Origin: a phage
DNA: 44,537 nucleotides
Assembly: GCA_034027115.1 (NCBI GenBank)
Contig: GCA_034027115.1_4703.1
Reading direction: 5' to 3' (one strand)
The position numbers and the translations under genes are program-made. The stretch's first letter is position 1. Each line of letters opens with the position of its first letter. Below the pieces are notes generated by a model. The model was not told where the DNA came from and did not search any database. It saw only the letters and a program-made list of their open reading frames with translations. Shown here in pieces: positions 17,154-23,556 of the stretch.

Positions 17154-17960
17154 ATGGCACGTGGTGATTTTGATTTTGGTGCTCAGGTTACTAAGGCTGA
17201 AGGTAAAGTATTTAAGAACCCTGAAGTTGGTGATCATGAAGCAGTAATCTCTGGCATCATTCATGTTGGTTCCTTCCAAGATATTTTTAAGAAAGGTAAT
17301 ACCACTGAGGTTAAGAAGCCAGCAAACTTTGTTCTTGTTAAGATTATCCTGATGGGTGACGACGACAAGAATGAAGATGATTCTCGCATGGAACAGTGGA
17401 TGGCTGTGCCTCTGAAGTCTGGTGACAAGGCAACCTTGACTAAGTTCCTGAATGCAGTTGACCCTAAAGAGCTGCTTGGTGGTTTCGATGACTTCATCGG
17501 TGAATGCCTGACTGCAACTATGGTTGGCTCTGGCGACAAGAATGATGATGGTACTTTCAAGTATGTTAACTGGAAAGGCTTTGGCGGTATGCCTGATAAG
17601 TTGAAGAAGCTTGTACTGGCTCAGGTAGAAGAGGAAGGTCTGTCTATGACAGGTCATATCACCTTCGACAAGCTGACCAAAGAAATCCTTGATGACATCC
17701 CAGCTAACTTGGTGCGTCAATACTTCCTTAATGAAACACCTCGTGGTAAGAACCTGTCTGTTGCTGGTTCTCACGTAGAAGCAATCATTAAAGCTGCTCG
17801 TGAAGAAGACCCAGAGTGGAAGAAAGCCAAGAAGAAAGATGACGAGGATGCTACTCCAGCTAATCGTAAATCTCTGGATACTGGTGAGTCTGTTCCACAG
17901 GAAGTACCTGAAGCAGAAGATACTCCTGCACCGGAGATGGATGAGGACGCGGAATATTAA
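17154..17960 (+). CDS. Abundant-looking protein with acidic C-terminal tail ending in Tyr (268 aa); candidate single-stranded DNA-binding protein (function inferred).
   Basis: AGGAG SD; codon usage rich in ctg/cgt/ggt/gct; C-terminus ...EAEDTPAPEMDEDAEY resembles the acidic aromatic tail of T7 gp2.5. Confidence 0.7.
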   Translation: MARGDFDFGAQVTKAEGKVFKNPEVGDHEAVISGIIHVGSFQDIFKKGNTTEVKKPANFVLVKIILMGDDDKNEDDSRMEQWMAVPLKSGDKATLTKFLNAVDPKELLGGFDDFIGECLTATMVGSGDKNDDGTFKYVNWKGFGGMPDKLKKLVLAQVEEEGLSMTGHITFDKLTKEILDDIPANLVRQYFLNETPRGKNLSVAGSHVEAIIKAAREEDPEWKKAKKKDDEDATPANRKSLDTGESVPQEVPEAEDTPAPEMDEDAEY

Positions 17961-18220: not shown

Positions 18221-18243
18221 ATTTACTGGACACTATAGAAGAG
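18221..18243 (+). promoter_or_regulatory. Phage promoter, consensus copy (ATTTACTGGACACTATAGAAGAG).
   Basis: Exact consensus. Confidence 0.7.
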
Positions 18244-18292: not shown

Positions 18293-18667
18293 ATGTTCAA
18301 GATTGAAACTATCGTAAACCGTGTTGTTAAAGGTGCTGCTCTGGTATCCGTTGAGTCTTTCATTATCGTCGATGAAGCTGATCAACTGGTAGCTGGTACT
18401 AAGGCTTATGATACTCGTGAAGAAGCTCAGGCTAAGATTGACAGCATGGGTAACTTCGCTGCGGGTCTGGAGTTCGCTCGTGCTTGCTTCCCTGAGCAGG
18501 CTGACAAAGCTCAGATTGGTAAGGCTAATATCGTAGCTGAATATCTGGATTGGATTGCTGCTGGTAAGCCGGTGAAAGAAGTTAAAGCTGCGGAAGAAGT
18601 TGAATCTCCGGCAGTAGAAGAAGTAGCTGCACCGGAAGTTCCGGTAAGCGAAGAAGAAGAGTTTTAA
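18293..18667 (+). CDS. Small acidic protein (124 aa) ending ...VSEEEEF; likely highly expressed; function unknown.
   Basis: AAGGAGA SD; optimal-codon-rich; flanked by a consensus promoter upstream and a hairpin plus T-run downstream. Confidence 0.75.
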   Translation: MFKIETIVNRVVKGAALVSVESFIIVDEADQLVAGTKAYDTREEAQAKIDSMGNFAAGLEFARACFPEQADKAQIGKANIVAEYLDWIAAGKPVKEVKAAEEVESPAVEEVAAPEVPVSEEEEF

Positions 18668-18934: not shown

Positions 18935-19963
18935 ATGCGACCAAACTTCGACTTCGGAGCTACAGTATCGGAAGACAATAACCTGTTGCTGTGGCCAACT
19001 GAAGGTAATAGAATCGCTTTAATAGATGCTGACATGTTACCCTACATCGTAGGTTATACAATCAGTGACATGACTTATGTACGAGCCACAACTCGTGTTA
19101 AGTCAGGACAAGTCCCATCAATCAAAGATACACCTGAGTGTAAGCAAGCGTGTGACCGTGTGAACTCCTTGCTTAACTCTTGGGTGTATGCAGCAGAGTG
19201 TGATGCTGCTAAGTTATTCATGACGAAATCAGAAGCTAACTTCCGAGTTCGCCTAGCCTTCACCAAACCTTATAAGGGTCAACGTAAGACCGAGAAGCCT
19301 CCGTTCTTCTATGAATTGCGAGAGCATCTCTTAGAGGTTCATGGTGCAATATTGGCAGATGGAGAAGAGGCTGATGACCTCATGAGCATTGCACAATGGG
19401 ACAGCCACCGCCGCTTCCAGCAAGATACAGGTAACGAGTTCCCTATCGGTAGTCCAGAGCATAAAGCATTCTCTGATACTTGCATCGTTTCCTTAGATAA
19501 GGATTTGATGATTGTTCCCGGTTGGCATCTTCAGCCGGGTCAAGAGAAGAAATGGGTAGAGCCTATGGGTTGGCTTGAGTTACGCCGTAAGGCTAATGGT
19601 CAGGTTAAAGACCTTAAAGGTGCTGGCCTCATGTTTCATTATGCACAGATGATTATCGGTGATGATATTGATAACTATGCTGGCATACCTGGACGTGGTG
19701 CTAAATACGCCTATGATCTTCTCAAAGATTGTAAGACAGAGAAAGAGTTGTACATGGCAGTGCTTGGTGCTTACAAGGCTAAGTTCGGACATGGACAAGT
19801 TAAGATTAAGAATTACCGAGGTGGTTATCGTATCGGCAAGGCTTTTGACCTGATGCTCGAATGTGGTCGCCTAGCTCACATGGCAAGATTCAAAGGTGAT
19901 ATATGGCGAGCCGATAAGAACCCAATCTTGTGGGGAGATGATGCAGAATGGTTAGCAAATTAA
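18935..19963 (+). CDS. 5'-3' exonuclease (T7 gp6-like, FEN family).
   Basis: AAGGAG SD 8 nt before ATG 18935; IALIDADMLPYIVG acidic motif resembles the gp6 N-terminal catalytic region. Confidence 0.85.
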   Translation: MRPNFDFGATVSEDNNLLLWPTEGNRIALIDADMLPYIVGYTISDMTYVRATTRVKSGQVPSIKDTPECKQACDRVNSLLNSWVYAAECDAAKLFMTKSEANFRVRLAFTKPYKGQRKTEKPPFFYELREHLLEVHGAILADGEEADDLMSIAQWDSHRRFQQDTGNEFPIGSPEHKAFSDTCIVSLDKDLMIVPGWHLQPGQEKKWVEPMGWLELRRKANGQVKDLKGAGLMFHYAQMIIGDDIDNYAGIPGRGAKYAYDLLKDCKTEKELYMAVLGAYKAKFGHGQVKIKNYRGGYRIGKAFDLMLECGRLAHMARFKGDIWRADKNPILWGDDAEWLAN

Positions 19964-20358
19964 AATCATCGGAGGTAGCAGCTTATAAGAGGGAACTGCT
20001 AGAGAAGCAAGGATGGAAGTGCCCCCTATGTGGCGGCAGCCTCAAGGCTGTTACTCCTATAAACCGTGTACTTGACCATGACCATGAGACAGGATTCTGC
20101 CGTGCTGTTGTATGCCGAGGCTGCAATGGTGCAGAAGGAAAGATTAAGGGTGTTATCTCTGGTTATGGTAAGGCTGGTAACAACCGTTACTTCCAGCTTC
20201 AATGGTTAGAGCGACTATATGAATACTGGAAGTTACATAGTACGCCTCAGACAGATAAGTTATATCACAAACATCAAACGGAGGCAGAGAAGCGCGAGGT
20301 TAAGAACCGTAAGGCACGCCTTGCTTATGCAAGAAAGAAGGAGGTTAAAGTTGGGTAA
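19948..20358 (+). CDS. Endonuclease VII-type Holliday junction resolvase.
   Basis: CPLCGG...LDHDHETGFCRAVVCRGCNGAEG matches the Endonuclease_7 signature (CxxC, DHDH, CxxCN). Confidence 0.85.
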   Translation: MVSKLKSSEVAAYKRELLEKQGWKCPLCGGSLKAVTPINRVLDHDHETGFCRAVVCRGCNGAEGKIKGVISGYGKAGNNRYFQLQWLERLYEYWKLHSTPQTDKLYHKHQTEAEKREVKNRKARLAYARKKEVKVG

Positions 20359-21358
20359 GCTTCGCAGCTTGTACAAAGACTCCGAGGTACTTGATGCAAT
20401 CGAGCAAGCTACCGACGAGAAAGGTAATGTTAATTACAATGAGATGGCACGTGTATTATCGTGTCACCCTGTGGGTAAGAAGATTACCCGCCAGTTGGCT
20501 CGATACTGGCATGGTCAATTCAAGAAGACCAAGAAGAATGGTGATTATTACCAGACCCTTCTGCAAGAAGATAAGCGTATCAAAGAAGAGCGTAAGCTCA
20601 GGACTCCTGACCGCTACGAGGATTTGGCTATTGTACCATTGCCTGACTCGCCTCATCGAAGTGTATTGGTAATCCCTGATACTCATGCACCTTATGAGCA
20701 TCCAGATACCTTAGAGTTCCTTGCAGCAGTCGCGGCACGTTACCGTCCAGATACAGTGGTTCACTTAGGAGATGAGGCAGATAAACACGCCCTCTCCTTC
20801 CATGACTCTGACCCGAATCTGGATAGTGCTGGCATGGAGCTAGAGAAGGCTCGTGTCTTCATGCACAAGTTGCACAAGATGTTCCCTGTGATGCGCCTGT
20901 GTCATTCTAATCACGGCTCTATGCACTTCCGTAAGGCAAGCGCCAAGGGTATTCCAGTGCAATATCTTCGCACCTACCGTGAAGTCTTCTTCCCAAATGG
21001 AGGTGGCGACCAGTGGGATTGGCAGCATACACATGTTCTTGAGTTGCCGAATGGCGAACAGGTGGCATTCAAGCATCAACCTGCTGGCTCTGTCCTAGCA
21101 GATGCAGCGCATGAGCGTATGAACCTTGTGTGTGGTCACTTGCACGGTAAGATGTCTGTGGAGTACGCACGTAATACACATGAACAGTATTGGGCTGTGC
21201 AAGGTGGCTGCTTAATTGATGAGTCATCCCGTGCATTTGCCTATGGGCGTGAGTCTAAATACAAGCCAGCATTAGGTTGTGTGGTTATTCTGGAGGGTGT
21301 ACCTCATATTGTCCCGATGCAAACCAATAGCGACAACCGTTGGATTGGCAAGATTTAG
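20353..21358 (+). CDS. Calcineurin-like metallophosphoesterase (start uncertain: TTG 20353 after AGGAGG, or a later ATG).
   Basis: Ordered motifs DTHAP, GDEAD, SNHG and GHLHG are the phosphoesterase signature set (DxH, GDxxD, GNH[DE], GHxH). Confidence 0.8.
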
Positions 21359-21373
21359 TTGACACTATAGAAC
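21353..21373 (+). promoter_or_regulatory. Phage promoter variant (ATTTAGTTGACACTATAGAAC).
   Basis: Overlaps the phosphoesterase stop codon; core CACTATAGAA intact. Confidence 0.55.
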
Positions 21374-21458
21374 AAAGGGCTAGGTAAGACTTTATCGGCT
21401 GGCGTATCCAAATGATATTGCACTAGCCCTTGATTGTATAGTGAATGGAGGATTCAAT

Positions 21459-21962
21459 ATGTCACACTATGAATGTAAGAAGTGTCATAAGCGTTATGAT
21501 TACTGTACTTGTGGTCAAGAGAAAACATCTTTTAAAGTTGGAGACAAGGTATTTCGTAATGAAAAAGATTCTATTCCTTGGAATCAATTCTGCAAAGAAG
21601 CTGGTATTGACCCTGATAGCCCTGTAACCATAGATGATATTGATGGCATTAACTTGTGCTTTCGTGAGGTGAGGGGTACAGGTTGGGATTCCAAAAAATT
21701 CAAACTTGCATCTGATAAGTTAGACAACAATATGGTAACTCAGCCTAAGCACTACGAGTTCTTTGATGGTGTAGAGGCAATCACTATCATTGCCCGCAGT
21801 ATGACTGAAAAGCAATTCGCTGGGTACTGCATGGGTAATGCCCTTAAGTATCGCCTGCGTGCAGGTAAGAAGTTCAATACTGAAGAAGACTTGAAGAAGG
21901 CAGACTATTATAAAGAGTTATTCCAGAAGCATCGTCACGAATGTATTGATGAGGATATTTAA
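21459..21962 (+). CDS. DUF3310-like phage protein with N-terminal Cys cluster.
   Basis: GGAGG SD 8 nt before ATG 21459; PKHYEFFDGVEAITII...GYCMGNALKYRLRAGKK...DLKKADYY resembles the DUF3310 signature as I recall it. Confidence 0.7.
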   Translation: MSHYECKKCHKRYDYCTCGQEKTSFKVGDKVFRNEKDSIPWNQFCKEAGIDPDSPVTIDDIDGINLCFREVRGTGWDSKKFKLASDKLDNNMVTQPKHYEFFDGVEAITIIARSMTEKQFAGYCMGNALKYRLRAGKKFNTEEDLKKADYYKELFQKHRHECIDEDI

Positions 21963-21963
21963 T

Positions 21964-22137
21964 ATGGAAGGTAAACTGTATAGAGGGTGCTTCGGTAACT
22001 TATATAAAGTAAGCTCTCGCGGTTTTGTATTGACCTCTGATGATGAAGGTGCAATGTGGCACCTAAGTGCATATGGTTCTAACTTAGCACACTTTAAAGA
22101 GGCAATAGTCAAAGGTGTGATGAAGGAGGTGAAATGA
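21964..22137 (+). CDS. Hypothetical small protein (57 aa).
   Basis: ATG two nt after the upstream stop; ends overlapping the ligase start. Confidence 0.35.
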   Translation: MEGKLYRGCFGNLYKVSSRGFVLTSDDEGAMWHLSAYGSNLAHFKEAIVKGVMKEVK

Positions 22138-23081
22138 ACATCTTCCAATTCCTAGGTCTTCCAGAAGACCACCGCAATCATCCATTCATGCTGGTGAAGC
22201 ATCGCGGTGAAGTTCCTGAGAAGAAACTTACTTTTCCATGTTATGCACAGGTGAAACGAGATGGAATATTCAGTGCTGTTGTGGTGCGCAATGATGGTGC
22301 TGTTGCCATCTTTGGTCGTACTGGTAAGAAGCTCGCAAATGTTGAATCCTTGGAAAAGACGTTTAGTGTATTTCCTGTCGGGTTGTATCTTGGTGAGTTG
22401 CAATCTATGGCTGTTGATGTTTATCTTGAAGCTCTGTCAGGAGTGGTAAACCCTAATCGTACAGAGCCACTTGACTTCATAGGCCAGCAGATTAAAGACA
22501 ACCTGTATATCGACTTCTTCGATATGTTAACTATTAAGGCATTCCATGATGGATTCACTGATGTTTCTTATCTCAAACGTTACGATGCTTTACATCGTCG
22601 CATCGGCGCCCATCTTAGCGGGTACAACGCTATCCTTCCTATTACTCCTTGCCATAATGAGCGAGAAGTTGAAGCGTTTGCGCAAGAGCAGATAGACGCA
22701 GGCCGAGAAGGTGCGGTATTTAAACTTGACGTGGAGTACGAAAGTGGGCACAAGGGCTATCGTCAAACGAAGATCGTTCGTATGGTATCTTATGACCTCA
22801 CCTGCATTGGGTGGGAGGAAGGAAAAGGTAAGTATAAAGGTAAAGTAGCTAATTTAATCTTTAAATGGAAAGGTGGTAAGTCCGTTAAGGCTATGCTGGG
22901 GCGTGGCTGGTCACATGAGGATGCAGCACAGATGTATCACGATATTAAACACGGTGGCGAACTAAACGTCATTGGGAAAATCTTCGCTGTTAAGGCGTTA
23001 CAGGAATCTAGTAAGGGAGTCCTGAGACTTCCCAAGGTTTCTGAACTTAGGTTTGATAAGGAAGTCCCTGATGTCTTCTAA
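22134..23081 (+). CDS. ATP-dependent DNA ligase.
   Basis: Active-site KxDG motif (QVKRDGIFSAV); GAAGGAGG SD. Confidence 0.85.
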   Translation: MNIFQFLGLPEDHRNHPFMLVKHRGEVPEKKLTFPCYAQVKRDGIFSAVVVRNDGAVAIFGRTGKKLANVESLEKTFSVFPVGLYLGELQSMAVDVYLEALSGVVNPNRTEPLDFIGQQIKDNLYIDFFDMLTIKAFHDGFTDVSYLKRYDALHRRIGAHLSGYNAILPITPCHNEREVEAFAQEQIDAGREGAVFKLDVEYESGHKGYRQTKIVRMVSYDLTCIGWEEGKGKYKGKVANLIFKWKGGKSVKAMLGRGWSHEDAAQMYHDIKHGGELNVIGKIFAVKALQESSKGVLRLPKVSELRFDKEVPDVF

Positions 23082-23556
23082 TCCAAATTATCGAAAACCA
23101 CCTCGTACACCGCCAAGACCACTTGCCTACTGTCCTTTTACTGGAAAGCTTTTCCGTAAGTTCAAAGATGGCTGGAGAGAAACAGGACTTAGCAGAAAGA
23201 GTGATGGATATTTACAGTGTAAAGTCGATGGTAAGACTGTAAGTGTTCATGTTTTAGCAATGAATATGATGGGTTATGACACTACCGGCTTTACAGTAGA
23301 TCACATAAATCATATACGCTGGGATAATAGGTTTATTAATCTACGTCTATTATCTCATAAAGATAATTGTTTAAATAGAGAGGCGATACATATAAGTAAG
23401 CTGCCGAGTGGTAACTACAGAGCGCGATGTGGAAATGTTCATCTTGGCGTATTTGAGGATAAGTTACTTGCTCGTGGTGCTATCCTATGGTATCGCCATA
23501 GGGGATTTAATAATGTTAAATTCAATGAAGGCAACGCGTGCCGTAGAAGTAGCTGA
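23071..23556 (+). CDS. HNH homing endonuclease.
   Basis: DHINHIRWDNRFINLRLLSHKDN HNH signature; overlaps the ligase 3' end. Confidence 0.8.
   Translation: MSSNPNYRKPPRTPPRPLAYCPFTGKLFRKFKDGWRETGLSRKSDGYLQCKVDGKTVSVHVLAMNMMGYDTTGFTVDHINHIRWDNRFINLRLLSHKDNCLNREAIHISKLPSGNYRARCGNVHLGVFEDKLLARGAILWYRHRGFNNVKFNEGNACRRSS

Follow-up and report, generated by a model that had tools for sequence, protein, structure and literature searches.

The DNA analysed here, 44,537 nucleotides from phage contig GCA_034027115.1_4703.1 (the window), encodes a metallophosphoesterase (MPE) of the calcineurin-like superfamily among its DNA-metabolism genes. The gene is real and intact, and its product is predicted to act as a metal-dependent phosphoesterase. 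The best explanation for the protein, a tentative one given slightly less than an even chance, is that it is a DNA-tethered, metal-dependent nuclease that would serve in host-DNA breakdown or in phage replication. Public records already contain the gene with its superfamily assignment, and the observation itself is not new. What is added here is the domain architecture of the protein, the conserved module in which its gene lies, and a specific link to a clade that includes gp47 of phage Bxb1 and gp48 of phage A10ZJ24. Together these point to DNA as the substrate.

The enzyme and its N-terminal domain

The window comprises all or nearly all of a Vectrevirus genome (K1E/K1-5/SP6-like; Autographiviridae, Molineuxvirinae). 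The MPE gene, its ribosome-binding region and the parts of its product lie as follows.

20340-20344, + strand: Shine-Dalgarno-like GGAGG, within the last part of the endonuclease VII gene, from the sequence itself
20351-21358, + strand: MPE gene, 335 amino acids, TTG start and TAG stop (21356-21358), delimited by the open reading frame (ORF), the PHROG 221 match and the start of VEc3 gp26
20351-20644, + strand: N-terminal domain, residues 1-98, a Myb/homeodomain-like three-helix fold, probably DNA-binding; basic, isoelectric point 9.35
20645-21355, + strand: catalytic MPE domain, residues 99-335, which in relatives occurs as a stand-alone protein
20672-20695, + strand: motif I, IPDTHAPY (D110-x-H112), invariant among 65 aligned homologues; codon positions checked
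20762-20788, + strand: motif II, HLGDEADKH (G140, D141, E142, D144, H146), invariant in the same alignment
20786-20833, + strand: family-specific loop after motif II, HALSFHDSDPNLDSAG, residues 146-161, nearly invariant, of low model confidence (below 50)
20900-20920, + strand: motif III, CHSNHGS (N187, H188), placed from the same alignment
21068-21079, + strand: motif IV, FKHQ (H242), invariant in the same alignment and kept in at least 90% of a more diverse set
21131-21148, + strand: motif V, CGHLHG (G262, H263, H265), placed from the same alignment

The likely start is the TTG codon at 20351-20353, 6 nucleotides (nt) past the GGAGG, and the same start is annotated by RefSeq for gp26 of phage VEc3, a 'metallo-phosphoesterase'. 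The first-pass annotation had the correct frame, which runs to the TAG at 21356-21358, and began the gene 2 nt off, at 20353. The 1006 bases of the feature as it was then reported are 100% identical in Escherichia phage EC120 and in Sem1-3 phages, and show at least 95% identity to 33 records; about 90 near-identical phage records already have the gene annotated.

That the protein is a calcineurin-like MPE, as had been proposed from the letters of the sequence, is agreed upon by its motifs, its PHROG assignment and its predicted fold. The five canonical MPE motifs (DxH, GDxxD, GNH(D/E), H, GHxH) are present in order, and the metal-ligand positions survive alignment of the 65 homologues, which span 47-87% identity. 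Residues D110, H112, G140, D141, E142, D144, N187, H188, H242, G262 and H265 are invariant in that alignment, and H263 is kept in at least 90% of the sequences. Motif III departs from the usual form, reading S-N-H-G in place of G-N-H-D/E. The match to PHROG 221, 'metallo-phosphoesterase', has an E-value of 3.4e-105 and pairs residues 1-334 with positions 16-358 of the 367 in the profile. The Pfam Metallophos model (PF00149 clan) is barely reached, at 21.6 bits against a cut-off of 21.5, and no solved MPE structure in the PDB was matched by sequence at E up to 10, either with the single protein or with the family profile; the family is therefore a divergent one. Homologues are abundant: one protein-database search gave 2806 clusters (90% identity) and another 3110 representatives (50% identity). 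The earlier statement that T7 has no such enzyme also holds, given a best tblastn E of 0.6 and no match of the family profile to six-frame T7 ORFs at E up to 10.

An AlphaFold2 model of the protein (predicted local distance difference test, pLDDT, 86.7; predicted template-modelling score 0.83) has the beta-sandwich MPE fold. A search of the BFVD collection of viral folds returned only uncharacterised phage MPEs. Only in the loop HALSFHDSDPNLDSAG does the pLDDT of the model drop below 50, although the loop is nearly invariant across the family. This loop probably contacts substrate or metal and would become ordered upon binding.

The protein consists of two parts. The N-terminal domain is conserved in the SP6-like branch, with invariant L36, L49, Y52 and W53. 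When it was modelled separately (pLDDT 86), its structural matches were nearly all DNA-binding three-helix domains, and on the strength of this model residues 1-98 are probably a DNA-binding domain. Relatives with other N-terminal extensions follow the same pattern. Among 59 family representatives with an extension, for which the first 25 of 31 Pfam families were listed, every listed match other than the MPE itself is a DNA-binding module. HTH_23 is found in 10 extended relatives and a homing-endonuclease-associated repeat in 3, while HTH_3, IclR, MarR, Fis-type, LysR and other modules each occur in one to three. Since varied and unrelated DNA-binding modules have been joined to one catalytic core, the enzyme would be expected to work on or at DNA, and these interchangeable fusions are the strongest computational clue for DNA as its substrate or working site.

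Some homologues are longer (470-635 amino acids) and carry inteins within the catalytic motifs. The insertion follows G-D-E of motif II in P0121, P0132 and P0155, and D-L-H of motif I in P0159, a protein with a LAGLIDADG_3 domain (30 bits). The inserts begin with Cys and end with Asn, and a Cys then follows. A protein of Proteus phage vB_PmiP_RS8pmA may also bear an intein, judging by its length of 637 amino acids. Phage inteins are typical of enzymes of DNA and nucleotide metabolism, and for that reason those in the MPE homologues are counted as support for a DNA-related role.

Relationship to Bxb1 gp47 and other phosphoesterases

A tblastn search from the window protein reaches Gordonia phage metallophosphoesterases at an E-value of 1e-4. 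By synteny these are the counterparts of Bxb1 gp47, given that both adjoin a sigma-K factor and a ribonucleotide reductase. The relationship was assessed by hhalign, with the profile of the window's family as the query throughout; probabilities and E-values are given below.

24-sequence gp47-family profile: 96.1%, E 3.6e-9, over 184 columns (residues 103-302)
Gordonia phage Strosahl gp61, single sequence: 94.4%, E 8.6e-8
Bxb1 gp47, single sequence: 84.8%, E 6.6e-6
lambda NinI phosphatase, control: 6.1%, E 0.0062
E. coli SbcD, control: 2.7%, E 0.017
E. coli YfcE, control: 0.9%, E 0.058
T5 A1, control: 0.4%, E 0.16

The four control families, at 0.4-6.1%, are ruled out as closer relatives, and against that range the 96.1% of the gp47 family makes the affinity specific, beyond shared membership of the MPE superfamily. 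Residues D10, D41 and H175, which are essential in gp48, align with D110, D141 and H263 of the window MPE. The alignment of motif IV between the families is unreliable, in that hhalign pairs T-H-G-H of gp47 with the non-conserved H226/H228; H242 is taken as motif IV of the window MPE because it is conserved. In both families motif II is followed by a conserved insert, and members of both lie amid genes for replication, endonuclease VII and nucleotide kinases. The gp47 family lacks the N-terminal DNA-binding domain that the window MPE has. On these sequence comparisons, the actinophage clade of Bxb1 gp47, L5/D29 gp54 and A10ZJ24 gp48 is the nearest characterised one to the window's family, and the two are treated as sister clades rather than as one family. 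In Gordonia phage Strosahl (L003, 3567-4762), the gene for the gp47-type MPE and a DUF3310 kinase gene share 4 nt; pairing of an MPE gene with a kinase gene is thus common to Strosahl and the window, in reversed order.

The gp48 protein of A10ZJ24 is a phosphodiesterase. It is reported to break down DNA in vitro, whether linear, plasmid or genomic, and in vivo it is toxic and lowers the amount of intact host DNA (PMC12287305). The activities of gp48 are abolished by the substitutions D10G, D41V and H175D, and a phage with gp48 deleted cannot replicate its DNA in M. tuberculosis (PMC12287305). Bxb1 gp47, whose gene lies amid replication genes, serves the Bxb1 serine integrase as recombination directionality factor, and homologues of gp47 are also found in phages that do not use them for recombination (PMC1470463). 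The predicted structure of gp47 resembles Mre11 and PolD DP1, and gp47 is reported, second-hand in the same paper, to be essential for phage DNA replication (PMC11795197). No integrase was found among the 22 annotated genes around the VEc3 homologue of the window MPE. T7-like phages are lytic. The window phage appears to be lytic as well, and the directionality-factor role of Bxb1 would therefore not apply to it.

Other MPE systems that act on DNA are more distant. The A1 protein of phage T5, a predicted metallophosphatase of 556 amino acids with pre-early expression and a different genome context, shares the S-N-H form of motif III with the window MPE but has no detectable specific relationship to it. 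A1 is reported to be necessary and sufficient for degradation of host DNA and to work with a separate DNA-binding protein, A2 (bioRxiv 10.64898/2026.04.02.716235), and the two proteins offer a functional precedent for an MPE joined with a DNA-binding function. The window MPE does not belong to the Mre11/SbcD sequence family, given the low SbcD probability above and the lack of any PDB chain matched at E up to 10. Compared with PolD DP1, Mre11 and SbcD it also appears to lack an OB or capping domain, with no extra C-terminal domain in its model, and no Rad50/SbcC-like ATPase partner is seen among its neighbouring genes. The structural scores of generic phosphodiesterases (13.7 for YfcE and 13.5 for MJ0936) are as high as those of PolD DP1, Mre11 and SbcD.

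A conserved module of DNA-metabolism genes

The first-pass annotation placed the MPE between endonuclease VII and ligase, and this order stands, with the detail that two ORFs (the DUF3310 kinase and an ORF of 63 codons' worth of protein, 63 amino acids) precede the ligase. The surrounding features are listed here.

18227-18240, + strand: promoter-like core TGGACACTATAGAA, the nearest upstream site for a phage RNA polymerase, from a pattern search
18935-19963, + strand: 5'-3' exonuclease gene (T7 gene 6 type), overlapping the start of the endonuclease VII gene
19948-20358, + strand: endonuclease VII gene, directly upstream of the MPE gene (Pfam Endonuclease_7, E 1.5e-12)
21353-21375, + strand: SP6-type promoter-like site ATTTAGTTGACACTATAGAACAA, which contains the MPE stop codon, from the sequence and a pattern search
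21459-21962, + strand: DUF3310 nucleotide kinase gene, T7 gp1.7 type (Pfam DUF3310, 87 bits), start taken from VEc3 gp27
22134-23081, + strand: ATP-dependent DNA ligase gene (Pfam DNA_ligase_A_M and DNA_ligase_OB_2)

The stop codon of endonuclease VII (20356-20358) overlaps the start of the MPE gene by 8 nt. The assignment of the kinase is matched by T7 gp1.7 itself, which reaches DUF3310 at 81.5 bits. The promoter-pattern search of the window gave 19 matches where 5.4 would be expected. The exonuclease, endonuclease VII and MPE genes probably close one middle-class transcript that would start at the site at 18227, and the site at 21353-21375 presumably drives the kinase and ligase genes. No other copy in the window carries the TTGACACTATAGAA of this latter site; in eight of the others the sequence is TGGACACTATAGAA.

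Five genera, represented by the window, phiKT (Ermolevavirus), Khlen (Phimunavirus), AS51 (Kaohsiungvirus) and SoKa (Bifseptvirus), share the order exonuclease, endonuclease VII, MPE. In the window the endonuclease VII and MPE genes overlap by 8 nt, in phiKT by 11 and in AS51 and SoKa by 1 each; in Khlen a small ORF lies between them. In all but one of the five genera, the gene next downstream of the MPE encodes an enzyme that processes nucleotides, and its fold varies by genus. In phiKT it is a weak match to P-loop dNMP kinases, in Khlen a phosphatase of the haloacid dehalogenase (HAD) type, PNKP class, at 66.8 bits, and in SoKa a dATP/dGTP diphosphohydrolase domain; the AS51 neighbour belongs to DUF7768, a family of unknown function. 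The slot downstream of the MPE thus seems to be under functional constraint.

T7 breaks down host DNA with endonuclease I (gene 3) and the exonuclease (gene 6), and the dGMP and dTMP so released are substrates of the gp1.7 kinase. In the window phage, endonuclease VII replaces endonuclease I, and the MPE is an additional enzyme without a T7 counterpart.

The family is widespread among phages. A tblastn search with the catalytic domain found 670 phage records, mostly of Autographiviridae, with Klebsiella, Escherichia, Pectobacterium, Pseudomonas, Aeromonas, Vibrio, Proteus and Salmonella as hosts. A motif scan of 185,579 reference genomes, which detects near-exact motif patterns only, found 6 loci, all on contigs of metagenome-assembled genomes (MAGs), three of them 21-46 kb and three 2.8-6.4 kb long. 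The family looks essentially phage-borne, a soft conclusion given the near-exact patterns of the scan. The window MPE is the same protein as the 'metallo-phosphoesterase' of PHROG 221 and RefSeq in SP6-, K1E-, KP34-, phiKT- and Peat1-like Autographiviridae, and SP6 gene 23 is 94.9% identical to it over the catalytic domain. The names under which the protein has been deposited are inconsistent, and include phosphoesterase, PP2A-like phosphatase, metalloprotease, endonuclease and hypothetical protein. Records with divergent names are AY288927.2 (SP6 gene 23, metalloprotease), KX279892.2 (AAPEc6) and PV763895.1 (Ppr_SeaP3), and in UniProt the K1E protein is split at the domain boundary into entries of 104 and 237 amino acids (A0A2I4Q1Z7 and A0A2I4Q1Y4). 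The divergent names and the K1E split are probably annotation errors or the result of a frameshift.

Three further ORFs of the window were noted. One at 23053-23556, overlapping the 3' end of the ligase gene, matches the homing-endonuclease family HNH_3 at 35.7 bits. At the same place VEc3, a close relative, has three small hypothetical ORFs and no HNH_3 ORF, so that the window ORF looks like a mobile insertion that varies among near-identical phages. The ORFs at 17154-17960 (ending MDEDAEY) and 18293-18667 (ending SEEEEF) have no Pfam match, and each has an acidic tail with an aromatic last residue. Such tails are found at the C-termini of T7 gp2.5 and gp4, where they contact DNA polymerase. 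By this analogy the two ORFs are candidates for a single-strand-binding protein or another replisome partner.

A proposed role on DNA and its alternatives

The roles first listed for this enzyme ranged from processing of nucleotides or DNA ends to hydrolysis of messengers in host defence. Among them DNA processing is favoured because of the N-terminal fold and the recurrent fusions, the coupling to exonuclease and endonuclease VII, and the relationship to gp47 and gp48. In short, the N-terminal domain would keep the enzyme on DNA, and the binuclear-metal catalytic domain would cleave DNA phosphodiester bonds as a nuclease. A single transcript of the phage polymerase would supply the MPE along with the 5'-3' exonuclease and endonuclease VII, and the MPE would act in the middle, DNA-metabolism phase of infection. 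Under one version the host chromosome would be broken down to nucleotides that the adjacent nucleotide kinase recycles; under another, the enzyme would process ends or intermediates needed in phage DNA replication and recombination.

Several observations weigh against a DNA-tethered nuclease. The catalytic domain alone (about 235 amino acids), with no N-terminal domain, makes up 82 of the 150 best family representatives. The link to gp47 and gp48 is remote, at about 21-27% identity over aligned columns, and the signatures of that clade are absent from the window MPE: motif I reads D-T-Q in the gp47 clade against D-T-H in the window protein, and the loop after motif II, invariant as PQPSRW...EFEGS in the gp47 clade, is unrelated to the HALSFHDSDPNLDSAG of the window family. 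The nuclease activity of gp47 is weak (a 3' exonuclease with Mn2+ or Mg2+), and its authors could not exclude contamination (PMC11795197). The gene order is not universal, as the MPE gene of the Drulisvirus KpV41 follows that for DNA polymerase, with the exonuclease, endonuclease VII and kinase genes about 3 kb beyond it. A literature search for biochemical or genetic work on the PHROG 221 MPE family returned genome announcements only.

The alternative that survives best is end healing, which has a small but appreciable chance of being correct. The MPE would remove 3'-phosphates, or open 2',3'-cyclic phosphates, on broken DNA or RNA to allow resealing by kinase and ligase, like the phosphatase domain of bacterial Pnkp or the T4 Pnkp/ligase pathway. 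The order MPE, kinase, ligase in the window would suit such a pathway, as would the ligase shortly downstream in AS51 and SoKa as well, the PNKP-type neighbour in Khlen and a DNA-binding domain on the enzyme. However, the kinase is of the DUF3310, T7 gp1.7 type, which acts on free dGMP and dTMP and not on polynucleotide ends, and the ligase is of a T7 type that T7 itself has without any MPE. The phosphatase domains of Pnkp belong to the lambda-phosphatase clade, but lambda NinI reaches only 6% probability and the GDxxDR and GNHE signatures are absent from the window MPE. There is a weak match to the NCBIfam model of the ligase-associated PdeM (TIGR04123), but it is local, covering residues 114-146 only, and at 21.9 bits falls well below the cut-off of 150; membership of PdeM is rejected, and the match counts as no more than a weak lead towards end healing. 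The tightest linkage of the MPE gene is to exonuclease and endonuclease VII, not to the ligase.

A nucleotide-pool enzyme, to which a rather slim chance is given, would hydrolyse free dNTPs, dNDPs, dNMPs, dinucleoside polyphosphates or short oligonucleotides, and so reshape the pool for phage DNA synthesis. Consistent with this are the downstream neighbours, which are nucleotide-processing enzymes of differing folds, and the overlap of the related MPE gene with a DUF3310 kinase gene in Strosahl. The DNA-binding fusions argue against it, and a nucleotidase beside a nucleotide kinase would make a futile pair. Nor is there specific similarity in sequence, or a standout structural score, to ApaH, 5'-nucleotidase or other nucleotide-specific MPEs.

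It is decidedly improbable that the MPE is a counter-defence hydrolase of small signalling nucleotides, such as those of CBASS, Pycsar, Thoeris or type III CRISPR systems. Such a role was predicted by comparative genomics for calcineurin-like phosphodiesterases of jumbo phages (PMC7824862). The near restriction of the window's family to phages, with the 6 MAG-contig loci as the only matches of the near-exact motif scan in the reference genomes, would fit as well. No positive evidence was found for hydrolysis of defence messengers, however, and recurrent fusions to DNA-binding domains would be unexpected on an enzyme for soluble ligands. Anti-defence genes usually sit in the variable early region, but the MPE belongs to the conserved core of the exonuclease/endonuclease VII module in five genera, outside that region. 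The nearest characterised relatives act on DNA. The likeness once drawn to anti-CBASS and anti-Pycsar nucleases is one of analogy only, as Acb1 is a 2H phosphoesterase and Apyc1 an enzyme of the metallo-beta-lactamase fold, and the window protein has the MPE fold. PADLOC gave no match, which is expected, since it covers defence and not counter-defence proteins.

A protein serine/threonine phosphatase, the 'protein phosphatase 2a-like' annotation given in AAPEc6, vB_AspA_Tola and Gutovirus Vc1, is scarcely credible, given that the phosphoprotein phosphatase signatures GDxHG, GDxVDRG and GNHE are replaced by PDTHAP, GDEADKH and SNHG, that the hhalign match to lambda phosphatase (NinI) covers motifs I-III only at 6.1%, and that phosphoprotein phosphatase structures ranked under nucleases and generic phosphodiesterases in the fold search.

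A DNA-tethered nuclease also permits a wider proposal, which is speculative and should be regarded as doubtful. The MPE of SP6-, KP34- and phiKT-type phages and the gp47, gp54 and gp48 proteins of actinophages may be branches of a single ancient, phage-specific clade of MPE nucleases that act on DNA, a core and unrecognised component of phage DNA replication or of host-chromosome destruction across unrelated lineages. In the podophage branch, exchangeable DNA-binding domains at the N-terminus would hold the enzyme on DNA. The enzyme may, as gp48 does, double as a counter-defence weapon, destroying host DNA and so silencing defence genes.

A DNA-tethered nuclease related to Bxb1 gp47 and A10ZJ24 gp48, if that is what the MPE is, would add no new kind of biology. 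It would explain how host DNA is degraded or replication completed in phages that have endonuclease VII and lack T7 endonuclease I, and it would link an enzyme of podophages of Gram-negative bacteria to a mycobacteriophage protein used in genome engineering, the Bxb1 directionality factor. The MPE is among the few well-conserved uncharacterised enzymes of SP6/K1E/KP34-type podophages; Klebsiella and E. coli are the targets of many phages that carry it, and phage-therapy studies account for several of the genome papers in which it is mentioned.

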